Shown here in pieces: positions 4,019 to 10,600 of a stretch of 33,654 nucleotides of DNA. Below the pieces are notes generated by a model. It was not told the origin of the DNA. It did no database searches and worked only from the letters and a program-made list of their open reading frames with translations. Source of the DNA: a virus (Duplodnaviria > Caudoviricetes); IMG/VR virus record IMGVR_UViG_3300037420_000377, positions 1 to 33,654 of that record. One strand, 5' to 3'. Each line of letters starts with the position of its first letter. Position 1 is the stretch's first letter. A program made the position numbers and the translations under genes.

Positions 4019-4032
4019 ACTCTACGTTTTAG
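4019..4032 (-). promoter_or_regulatory. Putative phage RNAP promoter, copy 1 (replication genes)
   Basis: CTAAAACGTAGAGT, identical at 8548-8561 and 31568-31581; each copy lies just upstream of a gene module. Confidence 0.75.
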
Positions 4033-5120
4033 GCTATCAGCTCGCCGTTCCAGGTCGATCCGGGGACCAGTGAGCCGCCGTTCGCCTTGGCCAGGAGGCT
4101 CGGGCCCTCGAAGTGTCCGTTGCCGTGGATTATGACCGGGCCGTTCTCCACACGGATCAAGGGCTCATTGCCGACCGCGTACACCTGGTTTAGGACAATG
4201 ATGGGCGGACGGTCGATGTTGCCCTGAAGACGGAAGTGCGAGGCGCCTCCGATGCCCCCGGCACAGCGAGGGTTGAGGCTGACCACACGCTCGATGGTCG
4301 TGTCGTCCCAGAGCTTGGCCGCGGCACGGGCTTGCTCGACGCGCAGGAGGCCGATCCAGTTGGAGCGGGACTTGAGGTCCACGCCGCCATCCGGGACGTT
4401 CTTGACGAACAGGTGATCGATCTCGGTCCTGTCGACGCTCTCTTCGACTGTGACGCCGTCTCCGTTCCAGTAGCGGTCCTGGGGCCAGTCGTCCAAGATG
4501 TTCTCGACGTGCATGCGGGTGACTCGGAGGAGCTTGATGCGCTTCCGTTCCATGTCGGCGGCGAGCGCAGATCCGGTCAGGCTGTTGTCGAACTTCTCGC
4601 CGATCTGGAGGCCGGTCGCGATGTCCCCGGTGTCGGTGTTGGGAAGGTCCTGGTACCCAAGCCAGACGTCCTCGACGATGATCTCTTCGGACGGGCCGAA
4701 GAGGCGGAAGGCTGGACGGCCCTTAAGCTGGTTCTCGCCGTCGATGCGGCTGATGTACGCCTTGCCCACTCCACAACCGGCGCCACAGTAGAAGAAGCTG
4801 CCGACCGCACTGCCCATACAGTCGGACATATCGAGCTGCTGCACGAACAGGGTCCGATCCGTGTGCTTTACGGCGATGTAGTCGTCCGTGAAGTTCTTGT
4901 CCTGCACAGACACGGTGGACGTCGTGGCCTTGAAGGCGGGAGCAGTTTCCTGAGTCCCGATGGGAAAGATCGGGGCGTCTGGCATCGTGGTGTCGTCGAG
5001 AACCGGGTCGCTCGGGGGAGGAGGCGGTGGTGGGGCAGTCGATGGGCTCTCCGCGGTCAGGGTGCGGAGATGCTCTACAAGGCCCTCGATCTGGTCGAGG
5101 GTGTCGGTGATCTCACTCAT
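4029..5120 (-). CDS. Right-handed beta-helix (pectin-lyase-like) protein with polyproline linker
   Basis: N-terminal helix, APPPPPPP linker, then beta-helix-like motifs NGDGVTVE...NVPDGGVDLKS; AAGGA RBS. Confidence 0.6.
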   Translation of the reverse strand: MSEITDTLDQIEGLVEHLRTLTAESPSTAPPPPPPPSDPVLDDTTMPDAPIFPIGTQETAPAFKATTSTVSVQDKNFTDDYIAVKHTDRTLFVQQLDMSDCMGSAVGSFFYCGAGCGVGKAYISRIDGENQLKGRPAFRLFGPSEEIIVEDVWLGYQDLPNTDTGDIATGLQIGEKFDNSLTGSALAADMERKRIKLLRVTRMHVENILDDWPQDRYWNGDGVTVEESVDRTEIDHLFVKNVPDGGVDLKSRSNWIGLLRVEQARAAAKLWDDTTIERVVSLNPRCAGGIGGASHFRLQGNIDRPPIIVLNQVYAVGNEPLIRVENGPVIIHGNGHFEGPSLLAKANGGSLVPGSTWNGELIA

Positions 5121-5930: not shown

Positions 5931-5958
5931 TTGGCGAAACTCCTAGATTGGCGATATT

Positions 5959-8511
5959 TCAGGCAAATGCGTACAGGGCGTCGTCGATCACACTGAGGTC
6001 CAGGTCGCCCTTCTCGGGCATTGGGGGGAGCCTCGACGGATCGCTCAGGTTGGCCTCGGCACTCCGAAGGACCTCTTCGAACGGGTCGTAGTTCTCGTAC
6101 ATGCCGATGAAGGCCTTCCGGATGATCCCGAAGAACTCCGCTGTGCGCCCTGCGTGGGTTCCGAAGCTGTCGTGGATCAGGGCCAGCGAGTGGATCCCGG
6201 CGTCCTTGGCCTCGAGGACCGTGAGCATCAGATGTGCGCCGTCCATCGAGTGAATGACGTTGGGCGCCACTGCCGAGCGGGCCTTGTCCTTATCGATCCG
6301 GTCGAGTGGCTTGGTCCTGATGTTGGCCCTCACCTGACGGATCACGCCAGCGTCAGTCACCTTGTCCCTCACCCCGGCATCCGTGACGGGCATGCGGCGG
6401 TCGTACAGGAACAGCTGGACGGACTTGGTGTCCCACTCGCTGTACTTGTGCATCACCGGGAGGCCGATGGGGGTCGTCCAGACAAGCGGCTTCTTCTCGT
6501 GGGCCAAGGCTCCAGCGACCTTCTTGAAGAACGTCATGCCGTCGGTCGCCCGATGCACGATGTTCGTCACGCTCCGGTAGACCTTGGCCGCGATGTACCC
6601 AGAGGCCGCGAAGCCACCGTCGCCGTCGACCGCGTAAGGGTTCGCGGGGATCTTGCCCTCGAGGACCTTGAGGTTCAGCGGGGCCATGAGGTCCTCCATG
6701 AGCTGCTGGCGGAAGCCGTACTGCTCGCTCGAGTAGGGGAACGTCATGACGTTGCGCTTGACCTCCTTGCGACCGATGCCAGCGGCAAGGACGATCTTGG
6801 CGATCTCGGAGCCCTCGGAGGCGTCACGCTCCATCGTGGCTACGACATCGTCGGCTACCGTTTGGTAGAGGTCCGCAGGGACTTCCGAAGGCGTGAGCGA
6901 AACGAGCGCCGCTTCGTCCTCTGCTCGGAGCGCCGCGGAGTAGTGCTGGAGTCCTGAGTTAGATCCGTCAAGCGCAACAGGGATCCGGCTCTCGAAGTCT
7001 TCAGATCGTCCGGATTGAACCCAGTCAGCGTACTCGAAACAGGCGGCAAGGAAACTGAAGGGCTTATCGGCAGTTCCCCACCAGTCGTGGGTTCCTTGAG
7101 GATCCGCGGCTGCACTGAGGATTGCCGCTTCGTTGGCGGCGACCCAGTCGAGCCGGTCGTCGAAGGATCGCTTGCTGACCTTTTCGAAGTCGCCAGTGTT
7201 AGCGAGATGGATCGAAAGCCATGCTCCACCAGACTCGCCAAGAGGGCATCCATCAGCGAACTGGAGGAGCGCTTTGACGTGGTCCGACCGTTGGTGGCTG
7301 AAGTGGCAGACAGGGTAGACCCGTCCGCGAAAGTCAAGGTTATGCGGGAGATAGAATCGATCATAAGCGGACAGCTCCCGTGCGGTTTCGATGTCTCGGT
7401 CGGTGATGCTCTTGTCGGCAGCAATCGACCGGTTCCGTTCTTCGATCTGACGGAGCTTGATACGGTAACCCTTGCGCTGTTGGTCGTCCATGCCCTCCCA
7501 GAGGCTCTCAGGGAGTCGCTGAGGACGTTCCAGGGACTTCCGCAGCGGAAGCTTGCCGATCTCGACGTCGTGCTTGTAGGCCCACTCTACGACGTCCAGG
7601 ACGCGCCCGTTGATCGACCAGGCGACTGCCTGAACGTAGTTGAGGGCCTCCATGACGTAGTCGAGCTGACCGTTGTCGATGGCCTGAGCGAGCATCCGCT
7701 TGTGGTCCGGGTGGTGGGTCCGGACGAGCTTCACGCGGCGAGAGGACTTCTCGTCGTAGTAGCAGCCGGTGTTCATGTCCGTCCAAGGCCGCGGTGGGAC
7801 GACCATCGGGCGATAGACGGGCTGGTTCCACGCGAGGGTCTCGCGGAGGTCGATCAGAAGCTCGGCGCCCTCGTTCGTGAGGCGGGCGACGGTCTGCATC
7901 CGGCCCTTCTTGGAGATGGTGGCCAGCTCGAAGATTTCAGGCAGGGCGAGGAGGACGGCGTTGAGGAGCGGTTCCCCGATGCGGACCTTGAAGTCGGTCT
8001 CCCAGGGCTTCCACTCGATGTTGTCGTCGGCGAGCTTCTTGAAGGCCTTCTTCCGCATGCGGCTCGAGCCCTGCTTGGCGACCCGGTCGTGGATCCGGCG
8101 AGCGACCTTACGACCGCGGGCCTCCTCCAGCTCGAGGGCCATGATCTCCTGCTCGACGGTCGTCCCGATGTGGACCTGTACCTGAGTGGTCGAGTACCCG
8201 ATGGTGACGCCGTTGAAGGTGGAATTGAGGGCGATGTAGGCTAGGACGTCGGGGTCCAGTCTCTTAAGGGTCTTAAGTCCCGTATGAGTCTTCCCTTTGC
8301 CCTTGTTGTCATTCTCTTCGATCCACTTAAGGACCTGTAGTGTAACTAAAGGTAGGGCTCCCTTGATCAGCTTCCGTCCCTCGGCGGTGGCGTGGGCACC
8401 CTCGTTCGTCTGGGTGTTCTTCTGTTCTTCCAGGTAGCGGTAGTACCCCTCCGATGTTGCCTTCTGTTCGAGACGCAGCTGGGCGTCCAATAGCTCTTGA
8501 TCCGGTTGCAT
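5959..8511 (-). CDS. T7-type single-subunit DNA-dependent RNA polymerase
   Basis: 850 aa with DFRGRVYP, motif A DGSNSGLQHY, motif B RKEVKRNVMTFPYS, APNVIHSMD, motif C IHDSFGTH. Confidence 0.98.
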   Translation of the reverse strand: MQPDQELLDAQLRLEQKATSEGYYRYLEEQKNTQTNEGAHATAEGRKLIKGALPLVTLQVLKWIEENDNKGKGKTHTGLKTLKRLDPDVLAYIALNSTFNGVTIGYSTTQVQVHIGTTVEQEIMALELEEARGRKVARRIHDRVAKQGSSRMRKKAFKKLADDNIEWKPWETDFKVRIGEPLLNAVLLALPEIFELATISKKGRMQTVARLTNEGAELLIDLRETLAWNQPVYRPMVVPPRPWTDMNTGCYYDEKSSRRVKLVRTHHPDHKRMLAQAIDNGQLDYVMEALNYVQAVAWSINGRVLDVVEWAYKHDVEIGKLPLRKSLERPQRLPESLWEGMDDQQRKGYRIKLRQIEERNRSIAADKSITDRDIETARELSAYDRFYLPHNLDFRGRVYPVCHFSHQRSDHVKALLQFADGCPLGESGGAWLSIHLANTGDFEKVSKRSFDDRLDWVAANEAAILSAAADPQGTHDWWGTADKPFSFLAACFEYADWVQSGRSEDFESRIPVALDGSNSGLQHYSAALRAEDEAALVSLTPSEVPADLYQTVADDVVATMERDASEGSEIAKIVLAAGIGRKEVKRNVMTFPYSSEQYGFRQQLMEDLMAPLNLKVLEGKIPANPYAVDGDGGFAASGYIAAKVYRSVTNIVHRATDGMTFFKKVAGALAHEKKPLVWTTPIGLPVMHKYSEWDTKSVQLFLYDRRMPVTDAGVRDKVTDAGVIRQVRANIRTKPLDRIDKDKARSAVAPNVIHSMDGAHLMLTVLEAKDAGIHSLALIHDSFGTHAGRTAEFFGIIRKAFIGMYENYDPFEEVLRSAEANLSDPSRLPPMPEKGDLDLSVIDDALYAFA
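6855..7364 (-). CDS. Candidate overprinted gene in the +1 frame of the RNAP gene (169 aa)
   Basis: GGGAG 10 nt before ATG 7364; the open frame coincides with a zone of anomalous third-position usage in the RNAP frame. Confidence 0.4.
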   Translation of the reverse strand: MIDSISRITLTFADGSTLSATSATNGRTTSKRSSSSLMDALLASLVEHGFRSISLTLATSKRSASDPSTTGSTGSPPTKRQSSVQPRILKEPTTGGELPISPSVSLPPVSSTLTGFNPDDLKTSRAGSLLRLTDLTQDSSTTPRRSEQRTKRRSFRSRLRKSLRTSTKR

Positions 8512-8547
8512 CCTTACTCCCGATGCGCTTGAGGCCAGTCCAGTGTA

Positions 8548-8561
8548 ACTCTACGTTTTAG
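8548..8561 (-). promoter_or_regulatory. Putative phage RNAP promoter, copy 2 (upstream of the RNAP gene itself)
   Basis: Exact 14-bp repeat CTAAAACGTAGAGT ending 36 nt before the RNAP ATG. Confidence 0.75.
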
Positions 8562-8601
8562 GCCCCGAACGAAGGCTACGCAGTGCTACTGTTGAGGCAC
8601 T

Positions 8602-8629
8602 GAGATAATCGCCATTTGGCGACATTCAA
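8602..8629 (-). promoter_or_regulatory. Candidate host sigma70 promoter for the RNAP gene with a palindromic operator in the spacer
   Basis: TTGAAT-16 nt-TATCTC; the spacer holds the perfect inverted repeat TCGCCA-AA-TGGCGA (8609-8622). Confidence 0.45.
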
Positions 8630-8636
8630 GGGATTG

Positions 8637-8672
8637 AAAAAGGGGCCGGAAGCACCTACGCCTCCGACCCCT
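8637..8672 (-). terminator. Intrinsic terminator between the int/attP region and the RNAP gene
   Basis: AGGGGUCGGAGGC-6nt-GCUUCCGGCCCCU followed by a U run. Confidence 0.85.
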
Positions 8673-8720
8673 ATAGGACAGTCCGCATCAGATTCGGCGG
8701 GTCCTCTATGGTTGGGCTAT

Positions 8721-9083
8721 CTAAGCCCTTTGCTTCTCCCAGACAAGCGTGTCGTCGTCGATCAGGACTTGGACCGCTGTCGTCTTGTCGTCTTCCCACA
8801 ACGCTTCGCCCCGGGCTAGGGCCTCGTCGAGGTTAGAAAAATGCTGCACACTTCTAACAACAAAACGATCCGGTCCCCCGCGCAGAGGTCCCTCACCGGG
8901 CGCTAAGTCGTTGTCGGCTTGGATCTTTGACCGGATTTTAAGTCTCCAGCGTCTACCGGTTCCGCCACGTCCGCTGATCTCAGCTCCCTCTAGAGGCAGT
9001 GCATTCTCGAGAGCAGCCCCGTCGGTCAAACGTGCGGGAATCCCCCACGCATCTGTCCCCCACATCGGGTTGCTCGCAGACAT
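8721..9083 (-). CDS. attP-spanning hypothetical protein (120 aa), coupled to the integrase
   Basis: AGGAG 5 nt before the ATG, TAATG overlap with the int stop, open through the attP core, ends about 50 nt before the terminator. Confidence 0.6.
   Translation of the reverse strand: MSASNPMWGTDAWGIPARLTDGAALENALPLEGAEISGRGGTGRRWRLKIRSKIQADNDLAPGEGPLRGGPDRFVVRSVQHFSNLDEALARGEALWEDDKTTAVQVLIDDDTLVWEKQRA
8934..8974 (-). mobile_element. attP core: 5' half of tRNA-Leu(UAA)
   Basis: GCGGACGTGGCGGAACCGGTAGACGCTGGAGACTTAAAATC is an acceptor 5' strand, Leu-type D arm and anticodon loop CT-TAA-AA. No T arm follows, and it lies about 110 nt downstream of int. Confidence 0.85.
9041..9063. repeat. Direct repeat TCCCCCAC x2, candidate integrase arm-type sites
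   Basis: Copies at 9041-9048 and 9056-9063, between the int stop and the attP core. Confidence 0.4.
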
Positions 9084-10120
9084 TAGGTCTCCTGACAACT
9101 CTGCTCAAATAAAGCGGCGACCTTGCCCACGGCCTTCTGGAGGTCCTCGTTGCAGACGTGGGCGTAGCGGAGGGTCGTCTGGATGGACTTGTGACCCGCC
9201 AGCTCCTTGATGATCCGGATGTCGACCCCGGCCTGGACGAGCCTCGTGCAGAACGTGTGGCGACAGGCGTGGAACACGAAGTCCTCGTCATGGTCCAGGG
9301 CCATCACTGCCTTCGCCTTGTCCCACTCGTACCTCAGCTGACGCTCGGTCGGCATCCCGATCTCGCGAAGGTACATGAGGTCCGCGTGTGTCTCGGGGCT
9401 GATGGGGATGGAGCGAGCCTTTCGGTTCTTCGTCTTCCACAGGTGGATGTGGTCGGCGGTGACCTGAGCCTCGACGCCCTCCACAGCCTCGTAGATCTCC
9501 CCGCGGCGCATGCCTGTACGGATCGCCACTCGGACGAGGGTGTCGTAAGGATCCGGCAGGACCGAGTAGAGGCCCTTCTCTTCGTCCGGAGAGATCCAGC
9601 GGATGCGTCCCTCGTCCTCGTCGAGCCACTCGATCTTGGGCATGGGGGTCTGCCGGTACCCGCGCTCGATGGTCCACTTGAGGAACTTGGAGAAGGCCGC
9701 AAGGTACCGGTTGACCGTGGAGTCACCCAGCGGTCGACCCTTGGGCCCTGAGGCCTTCAAGGTCGTCACCAGCTCGTCGATCAGCTTGGTGCTGACGTCG
9801 TCGATGGGCTTGTCCCCAAGGACATCCACGATGTGCCGGAGCTTCTTGAAGTTGCCGTCCGAAGACTCCCGGCCACGCCACAAGGACTGCTCGGCCCTGT
9901 CGATCAGATCGGACATGCGCTCCGTCTGCTGCGGGAGGTATCGCGTTGTCTTCTCAAGGGCCGGGGCGCCGCTCTCGAGCTGCCTGATGAAGGATCGCTC
10001 GAGGGCCTTGGCGGACTTGTAGTCGTCGGCTCGGCCCTTGAGGACCTGACGCCCCCTCTGGACCTCCACGCGCCAGCGCCCGGTCGGCTTCCCGTCCCGC
10101 TTATCGGCGTAGATGGACAC
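9083..10120 (-). CDS. int: Tyrosine recombinase (integrase)
   Basis: Catalytic set TGMRRGE, TKN, HACRH, LAGH, TLRY; N-terminal arm-binding-like GRWRVEV; GGAGG RBS. Confidence 0.97.
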   Translation of the reverse strand: MSIYADKRDGKPTGRWRVEVQRGRQVLKGRADDYKSAKALERSFIRQLESGAPALEKTTRYLPQQTERMSDLIDRAEQSLWRGRESSDGNFKKLRHIVDVLGDKPIDDVSTKLIDELVTTLKASGPKGRPLGDSTVNRYLAAFSKFLKWTIERGYRQTPMPKIEWLDEDEGRIRWISPDEEKGLYSVLPDPYDTLVRVAIRTGMRRGEIYEAVEGVEAQVTADHIHLWKTKNRKARSIPISPETHADLMYLREIGMPTERQLRYEWDKAKAVMALDHDEDFVFHACRHTFCTRLVQAGVDIRIIKELAGHKSIQTTLRYAHVCNEDLQKAVGKVAALFEQSCQET

Positions 10121-10510
10121 CTAGAGGACCTCCACCAGCTCATTGAAAAACAGCCTCCCCGCGTCGGAGAGGTAGTAGCTGTTCTTCCTAAGGTTGGACT
10201 GGTCCTGCTCGCGAACGACGAGCCCGAACCCGCTGCCTGGACCTCCGGTTCGACTTCGGTCGGACAGTGAGAGCATGTAGCGCGACATGTTGGACAGGGA
10301 GATGCCTGAGGCGTCTGCCAGCTCCTGTAGGCTCTTGCCCTCGTTGAGCGCCACGGACACGAGCGCGTGGGCCAGAGGGAGAGGAATGGTATCCTCGATA
10401 TCACGAAAAAGCCGGAAAGCCCTATCGAGCTTCCGGATCTTCTTGAGCGACGGCCCTTCCACGGGCGCTACCGACAGTGGCACGGTACTGTCGGGGACGA
10501 CCTGAAACAC
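10121..10510 (-). CDS. MarR-like winged-helix regulator
   Basis: AGGAGG RBS before GTG 10510; SLQELADASGISLSNMSRYMLSL HTH, wing GLVVREQD...RKNSYYLSDAG; abuts int. Confidence 0.85.
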   Translation of the reverse strand: MFQVVPDSTVPLSVAPVEGPSLKKIRKLDRAFRLFRDIEDTIPLPLAHALVSVALNEGKSLQELADASGISLSNMSRYMLSLSDRSRTGGPGSGFGLVVREQDQSNLRKNSYYLSDAGRLFFNELVEVL

Positions 10511-10600
10511 ACTACTTTCCTCCTGTGTTCTTGTTGCACCCCCTGAGGGCTTGGCTCCCTCCAACGCGAACAGCTTATTGGTTGATCCCAATTTTGTTAT

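Follow-up and report, generated by a model that had tools for sequence, protein, structure and literature searches.

A reading frame across the attachment site of a temperate T7-like phage may be a young fusion of attachment-site DNA with a small orphan domain

Can integration of a phage genome silence a gene by cutting it in two? The question is raised by a virus record of 33,654 bases, which we analysed whole and call the window, and in which a 120-codon open frame runs from the end of an integrase gene through the attachment site (attP). A first-pass annotation had proposed that integration decapitates this gene and excision restores it, which would make it a sensor of the recombination state. 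The minus strand carries, in this order, a MarR-like regulator, a tyrosine integrase, the 120-codon frame, a terminator and a T7-like RNA polymerase (RNAP), with the regulator, integrase and polymerase standing in the cassette order of temperate T7-like phages:

10121 to 10591, minus strand: MarR-like regulator, which opens the marR-int operon (PHROG 9665, E 6e-14; place shared with relatives and LUZ100)
9083 to 10120, minus strand: tyrosine integrase, 345 aa (PHROG 1, E 3e-48)
8721 to 9083, minus strand: the 120-codon frame under study (open frame; whole-length homolog not found)
8641 to 8672, minus strand: intrinsic terminator between attP and RNAP (z -4.28)
8609 to 8622, no strand assigned: palindrome 5' of RNAP, a candidate repressor operator (the pattern's sole match within the window)
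8548 to 8561, minus strand: candidate phage-RNAP promoter (same 12-mer at 4030 and 31579; by analogy to phi1 of LUZ100 in the available text of PMC10134795)
5959 to 8511, minus strand: T7-like single-subunit RNA polymerase (PHROG 414, E 4e-207)

Several smaller features accompany this cassette. The MarR-like frame at 10121-10591 is annotated from a TTG (156 aa), and the family profile covers residues 50-156 only; its true start may lie further downstream. Half-sites resembling the 8609-8622 palindrome occur at 5955 and 5938, just past the RNAP stop, as candidate MarR operators. The 12-mer is identical at its three minus-strand positions, which lie before RNAP (8559), past a 363-aa gene (4030) and ahead of the structural block (31579). 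That 363-aa gene (4029-5120, minus strand) is an orphan between RNAP and the SSB gene, without a PHROG or Pfam match.

The cassette resembles known ones. According to the available text of PMC10134795, phage LUZ100 has the same gene order; its terminator T4 follows int, and a phage promoter precedes RNAP. In pelagiphages, as described in the accessible part of bioRxiv 10.1101/410191, attP lies in a non-coding stretch between int and RNAP, and its 5' part can restore the tRNA; in T7-like cyanophages, the accessible part of PMC8776855 describes a core that matches the first half of tRNA-Leu. The window shares its gene order and an attP between int and RNAP with LUZ100, HTVC019P-type pelagiphages and P-SSP7/S-TIP37, and, as far as these partial texts go, a tRNA-Leu first-half core, a post-int terminator and a phage-type promoter before RNAP also belong to that T7-like cassette. 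Unlike the pelagiphages, the window has an SD-led 120-codon frame across attP and an extra small domain between core and terminator. Near-identical DNA is present in soil metagenomes, an identical integrase is also found on a 45.3-kb contig, and related integrases come mainly from Sphingomonadales and other Alphaproteobacteria. A scan of metagenomes yielded a single distant locus. Neither polymorphism nor a phage-host junction was found in eight runs.

We asked where within the frame the crossover would fall. The core is as follows:

8934 to 8974, minus strand: attP core, the 5' half of tRNA-Leu(UAA) through the anticodon loop, 41 nt, codons 37-50 (41/41 identity to soil contigs)

Contigs that match the core at soil sites, where coverage is deep, go on as tRNA 3' halves, and this continuation together with the full identity of all 41 positions identifies the core as the 5' half of tRNA-Leu(UAA). 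The frame does read through a tRNA-derived core, as had been noticed from the sequence; that the core is specifically the 5' half had not been said. It was absent from 401 Alphaproteobacteria genomes when up to 2 mismatches were allowed and, as an exact match, from IMG/VR. For the geometry of prophage ends, which comes from four relatives rather than from the window's own phage, RNAP was searched in 10 genomes with related integrases and found in 4. In all four of these prophages, int is followed by a whole tRNA-Leu at one end, and at the other end RNAP is preceded by the 5' half, so that a tRNA-derived core between int and RNAP marks the prophage ends of these relatives. By this geometry, the crossover must fall inside the frame, so attP is the only place where the long frame can exist; the proposal that integration splits the gene therefore holds. 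Between int and RNAP, two related loci (L130 and L131) have the tRNA-Leu 5' half in two tandem copies, separated by small repeated frames. At three others (L092, L144 and L151), the int-RNAP interval of free-phage-type loci has a whole tRNA-Leu and not a half.

The start of the frame agrees with its first description. All 120 codons from 9083 to 8721 are open, and the integrase's final three codons and stop contain AGGAG and a TAATG overlap, giving AGGAG-N5-ATG at the int stop; the identical TAATG overlap recurs at 1315 and 19905. The frame ends shortly before a significant terminator (8672-8641, z -4.3), 48 nt past its stop. Contigs from two other runs agree with the window without differences (X3 over 8728-8931; X2 over 7600-8780 and 8946-10006), ruling out an assembly slip as the origin of the frame. 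Three other explanations fared poorly. A programmed frameshift from int into the frame would meet a stop 8 codons before the ATG, and a slippery heptamer is absent downstream; a second terminator within the frame is not predicted (z +0.72); and attenuation at the terminator is unlikely, with the frame's stop 48 nt ahead of the stem.

How unusual is such a start? At in-gene pseudo-stops, AGGAG at the same spacing occurs in 62 of 8208 cases (0.8%) and a 4-mer SD in 673 of 8208 (8%), and we estimate that an ATG overlaps a stop by chance about 1 time in 16. The path through the core costs less: two of the three reading frames of the tRNA core are open, and codons 1-73 remain open in 15% of 5000 shuffles. 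An open reading across the core is thus easily reached, and the AGGAG is the unusual element. Multiplied together, the chances of AGGAG or another SD, of an overlapping ATG, of the correct frame and of an open path come to roughly 1e-5 to 1e-3 per locus, a rough product formed post hoc from a scan of very many windows. This rarity makes real re-initiation at ATG 9083 likely, and the long form is probably translated in that way. It suggests use of the start and perhaps selection on it, without showing that selection maintains gating by integration. The good SD, the coupled start and a crossover inside the frame are nevertheless what favour a selected recombination-state switch, in which the domain would be made from attP only and would take part in the lysis-lysogeny decision or serve as a counter-defence protein of the free phage alone.

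Homologs of the whole frame were found neither in PHROGs, Pfam and PADLOC, nor among 50,697 phage records, nor in a 5.8-billion word search (limited to 66-210 aa), nor among 164 related loci (best E 0.12). For closer comparison, we kept 40 of 181 loci, requiring a good integrase match, a catalytic motif that could be recognised and, within 500 nt, a tRNA-half pattern; these 40 formed 27 clusters at 90% identity. Neither the frame nor its domain has a homolog in any related locus retrieved. In 17 clusters the integrase stops before the core, and 4 of them have a start near that stop in a frame across the core, compared to 6.45 expected; none of these four coupled frames has an SD, and their products resemble neither one another nor the window's frame, save for the tRNA-derived peptide. 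Among attP sites rebuilt from prophages, 0 of 4 have an SD-led frame across the core. In the eight closest integrases (61-77% identity where measured; protein only), AGGAG is encodable at the matching place in none and a 4-mer SD in two, the stop is at a different codon in four, and one stays in the integrase frame across the repeat region. Among relatives with DNA, the nearest shares about 56% identity with the window across a partial integrase; in the tree, the window occupies a long branch. Conservation of the frame and its ribosome-binding site across attP, which the first-pass annotation had looked for, is thus largely contradicted by the relatives reached, where stops or other frames cross the site. 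That the join is kept in none of the relatives examined counts against a selected switch, which may be restricted to a clade closer than about 56% integrase identity.

Instead, the N-terminal part of the frame looks like attachment-site DNA. A 23-nt repeat stands on either side of the core with both copies inside the frame, so that codons 7-70 read repeat-core-repeat:

9041 to 9063, minus strand: upstream copy of the 23-nt repeat, paired G-rich hexamers, codons 7-15 (repeat D1, 78% identity; putative integrase arm sites)
8874 to 8896, minus strand: downstream copy of the 23-nt repeat, codons 63-70 (repeat D1; putative integrase arm sites)

In 20 of the 27 relatives, the repeat's G-rich hexamer or its complement occurs no more than 130 nt upstream of the tRNA start, compared to 4.0 expected from shuffles, a motif picked after the sequences had been seen; in control windows inside int, it was found in 9 of 133. 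In 21 of 27 relatives, the tRNA begins 176-211 nt from the catalytic Tyr codon (192 nt in the window), while the integrase stops anywhere between 28 and 116 codons after the Tyr. A constant distance with variable stops indicates a constraint at the DNA level, and the repeats and hexamers are likely integrase arm sites. We trained a codon model on 26 phage genes. By this model, codons 1-78 score -0.32 bits/codon, lower than any of 186 real windows of 78 codons and at the median for open off-frame windows, of which 106 of 213 score as high; codons 1-36 alone score -0.05, inside the range of real gene starts (2 of 26 lower). A real gene overlapping att DNA would also lose codon bias, so the low score is compatible with function. 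Residues 1-78 have pLDDT below 50 in a single-sequence AlphaFold model, and an Atlas search with residues 1-72 gave no usable match. Judged by sequence, att DNA accounts for the first 70 codons, and the leader that they encode would be unstructured.

The rest of the frame behaves like a gene:

8721 to 8849, minus strand: coding-like C-terminal domain, residues 79-120, helix and beta-hairpin, acidic, in-frame GTG at its start (codon score; homolog P0186; model pLDDT 79.5)

A protein-like C-terminal part had been described, and it is residues ~79-120 only that look coding and fold. Codons 79-120 score +0.26 bits/codon; 47 of 382 real windows score as low as this, and 14 of 780 off-frame windows reach it. 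Residues 70-120 were used in a full HMMER search, which returned 72 matches: the window's own 42-aa form, 70 large proteins and P0186. We set the large proteins aside as repeat matches, the two sequences inspected being repeat proteins of one kind. P0186, a stand-alone hypothetical protein of 60 aa that starts with its own Met, is the only clear homolog of the domain (E 6e-4) and aligns with residues 82-117 only, 20 of 36 identical (56%). Homologs of the domain were found neither in IMG/VR or plasmids, nor among the 181 loci, nor in phages, where one match at E 0.9 lies within an RNAP; it has no sequence match in Pfam, PHROG or PDB. A match at E 0.009 (151 genomes, one alphaproteobacterial order) was an unrelated cytochrome-c-like frame. 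The core-to-RNAP gap is 425 nt in the window and 127-329 nt in 26 of 30 relatives, and the wider gap fits a recent insertion of a small gene.

A two-sequence model of the domain (pLDDT 79.5) is confident from about residue 77 and predicts a helix at 85-97 and a hairpin at 103-118. Fold searches found nothing at E <= 0.001 with Foldseek, the comparison that had been suggested for this part, and nothing at Z >= 5. Look-alikes in the Atlas are proteins of 54-80 aa with scores of 0.84-0.85, one of them named DUF2188 and all under the tool's bars; TM to a DUF2188-named cluster is 0.81, under the naming bar. The best solved-structure match is the T4 Dmd antitoxin (Z 4.2, rmsd 2.2, 45 aligned), which may reflect a common arrangement only, and AcrIF9 reaches Z 2.9. 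In size and predicted arrangement, the domain resembles these small beta-alpha-beta-beta phage proteins (DUF2188-like, Dmd and AcrIF9); unlike them, it has no sequence match, and scores below the tools' bars make the likeness a lead only. For a selected switch, the Dmd match is a point in favour, but Z 4.2 falls in the range of common arrangements. The domain's charge (10 D/E vs 4 K/R) is a point against. Excisionases are basic DNA-binding proteins.

Could the small domain alone be the gene? The claim that it has no convincing start of its own proved overstated: a GTG at codon 79 (8849) and a CTG at codon 67 are in frame. A gene caller used GTG79 as the start of a 42-aa protein (P0121) on another contig, and both the coding-like score and the confident part of the model begin near this codon (79 and about 77). 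SD pairing energies are -7.4 kcal/mol for the ATG, -7.0 for CTG67, 0 for GTG79 and -0.5 for the major capsid gene, and weak-SD starts are common in the phage, several real genes of which have almost no SD. With an own start, the long frame would be a matter of chance, and the prophage geometry, which places the host's 5' half and its upstream DNA ahead of the domain, would put the gene directly behind the host tRNA promoter and before the terminator; integration would then switch it on, not off. We regard this account as rather doubtful. GTG79 has no SD pairing and would give a 42-aa product without ~20 N-terminal residues of P0186, the SD-like run before CTG67 is part of the 23-nt repeat, and the AGGAG-TAATG start is left unexplained. 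CTG start codons are also rare. Loss of an ATG at codon 72, which aligns with the homolog's Met, is possible and weak as an explanation, the SD-like run there being the repeat.

A decaying gene fragment beside attP, with no useful protein in either state, would account for an N-terminus shorter than in the only homolog and for a codon score and GC3 (0.74 vs mean 0.83) on the low side. This is highly improbable given a domain that has no stops or shifts, shares 56% identity with a stand-alone protein and is confidently folded in the model.

The layout is real, and a selected switch is less likely than a young fusion or a short gene with a chance frame. We give an even chance to a fusion that is young and specific to this lineage; in the free phage, ribosomes would likely translate it after re-initiating at the int stop, and its cutting on integration would likely be a by-product. 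The observed basis of this reading is the layout, the att nature of the N-terminus, a homolog that stands alone and a join that none of the relatives examined has: att DNA (repeat-core-repeat, codons 7-70) lies in an open frame joined to a small orphan domain (residues ~79-120). By analogy to LUZ100, host polymerase would transcribe marR-int-attP in the free phage up to the terminator, and ribosomes finishing int would re-initiate to make a 120-aa product, in which a leader derived from att DNA would be unstructured and an acidic tail domain folded. After integration, the tRNA 5' half would come from the phage side, and the first 50 codons would continue in the prophage into the host tRNA 3' half, where 2 of 3 mixed loose-end consensus sequences from soil contigs, as weak evidence, have an in-frame stop after three codons. 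The domain would sit behind the host tRNA promoter without its ATG, and the terminator at 8672-8641 would shield RNAP from that promoter. A domain without a good start of its own could stay expressed through the nearest coupled start, silencing on integration being a side effect. Three points count against such a fusion: the rare AGGAG-TAATG start, the single clear homolog of the domain, and the erasure of codon bias by the att overlap.

What might the domain do? In a young fusion, it would be an early cargo protein, possibly acting on a host protein and not in recombination. The annotation had offered a directionality factor, an antirepressor or an activator of the adjacent RNAP gene, and no such signature emerged from family, sequence or fold searches; Xis/AlpA/Cox-type families, whose members have a small basic winged-helix DNA-binding fold, do not appear among the fold matches listed, and the domain is modelled as an acidic helix and hairpin. 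RNAP has its own candidate promoter and palindrome, so that no extra activator would be needed in the LUZ100 model, and that the candidate promoter lies beyond the terminator is a further argument against a selected switch. On the other side, translation across attP is common in the family (10 of 27 integrase clusters, compared to 3.6 expected), and precedents exist in the BPs repressor (PMC4557955) and the Mx8 integrase (named in PMC4383910), as the accessible parts of these papers describe them. Weighing both, we hold a selected switch to be distinctly unlikely, and a conserved or purpose-built recombination-state sensor is unsupported, with the join absent in the relatives examined and an N-terminus explained by att DNA. 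An anti-host or counter-defence domain wired through attP to the int-coupled start, made only from the free or excised genome and silenced by integration, is unlikely too. If true, such a recombination-gated effector would be distinct from the BPs repressor and the Mx8 integrase and would have arisen in a T7-like family whose integrases repeatedly cross attP and swap tails.

An attP inside a reading frame is already known, and the window's layout is a variant of it. In mycobacteriophage BPs and its kin (clusters G, I, N and P), the available portions of PMC4557955 and PMC3694055 describe attP in a reading frame whose product integration alters. The window is like BPs in that the core, at codons 37-50, lies within a frame. 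The split gene of BPs, in these same portions, is a repressor upstream of int that keeps its folded N-terminus and sheds a C-terminal degradation tag. Unlike it, the window's frame comes after int and codes for no repressor, a separate marR gene being present; integration would cost it its folded part, and no relative examined conserves it. It has no HTH or repressor family match, and its folded part is C-terminal. By the geometry, integration would not remove a tag but detach the folded C-terminal domain from its start, leaving an att-derived peptide. In the Myxococcus phage Mx8, int itself (IntP) extends across attP, as the accessible text of PMC4383910 has it. As in the Mx8 and SSV integrases, translation in the window crosses attP just downstream of the integrase catalytic domain; unlike Mx8, the integrase stops 108 nt short of the core and a second frame crosses it. 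The layout thus belongs to neither system. In the published work searched, we found no att-crossing gene or integrase read-through for T7-like phages; the Pasto paper (ref. 14 of LUZ100), outside the reach of the search, may treat the region. Selected gating would be a third use of attP inside a gene, after the BPs repressor and Mx8 integrase, and would bear on how temperate T7-like phages choose between lysis and lysogeny. If gating is a by-product, which is more likely, the locus shows how easily open frames cross the tRNA-Leu half (two of three frames open) and warns against taking single att-crossing frames for switches.

Read-through by the integrase is a better-supported lead than the window's frame. 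Those 10 of 27 clusters, in which the integrase itself reads through the core, become 10 of 23 when clustering is at 70% identity (2.9 expected). Both expectations come from shuffles, and because these ignore shared descent, the enrichment is suggestive only. Five clusters read through in one frame and five in another, scattered over the tree (4 and 5 changes); the int 3' ends concerned are those of L004, L005, L011, L013, L014, L089, L090, L097, L106 and L116. A catalytic motif was recognisable in 116 homologous proteins, and 46 of these have a tRNA-derived peptide in their tail. Tails of attP-type integrases are often acidic, and prophage tails are tRNA-derived. In the prophage L011, the integrase tail past the core start is 41 residues long, compared to 21 in the rebuilt attP, and integration would swap the integrase C-terminus in a Mx8-like way.

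Of the other 70 proteins, 14 end in Ala-Ala (background 13 of 1701 dipeptides), and in the locus tree Ala-Ala ends are confined to one clade. Ala-Ala is a ClpXP signal in Alphaproteobacteria, and the ends of these integrases are likely ClpXP degradation signals. Read-through tails and Ala-Ala ends would both point to integrase stability controlled through the tail. The family's integrases would thus combine the Mx8 arrangement with a C-terminal tag as in the BPs integrases, to the extent that these are described in the available parts of PMC4383910, PMC4557955 and PMC3694055. Members of the Ala-Ala clade (L017, L018, L022, L023, L092, L102, L105 and L107; sphingomonad hosts where named) have integrases that end about 20-35 nt before the tRNA half. 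The int message of a prophage would include a whole tRNA in its coding frame, and tRNA processing could, speculatively, cut it there.
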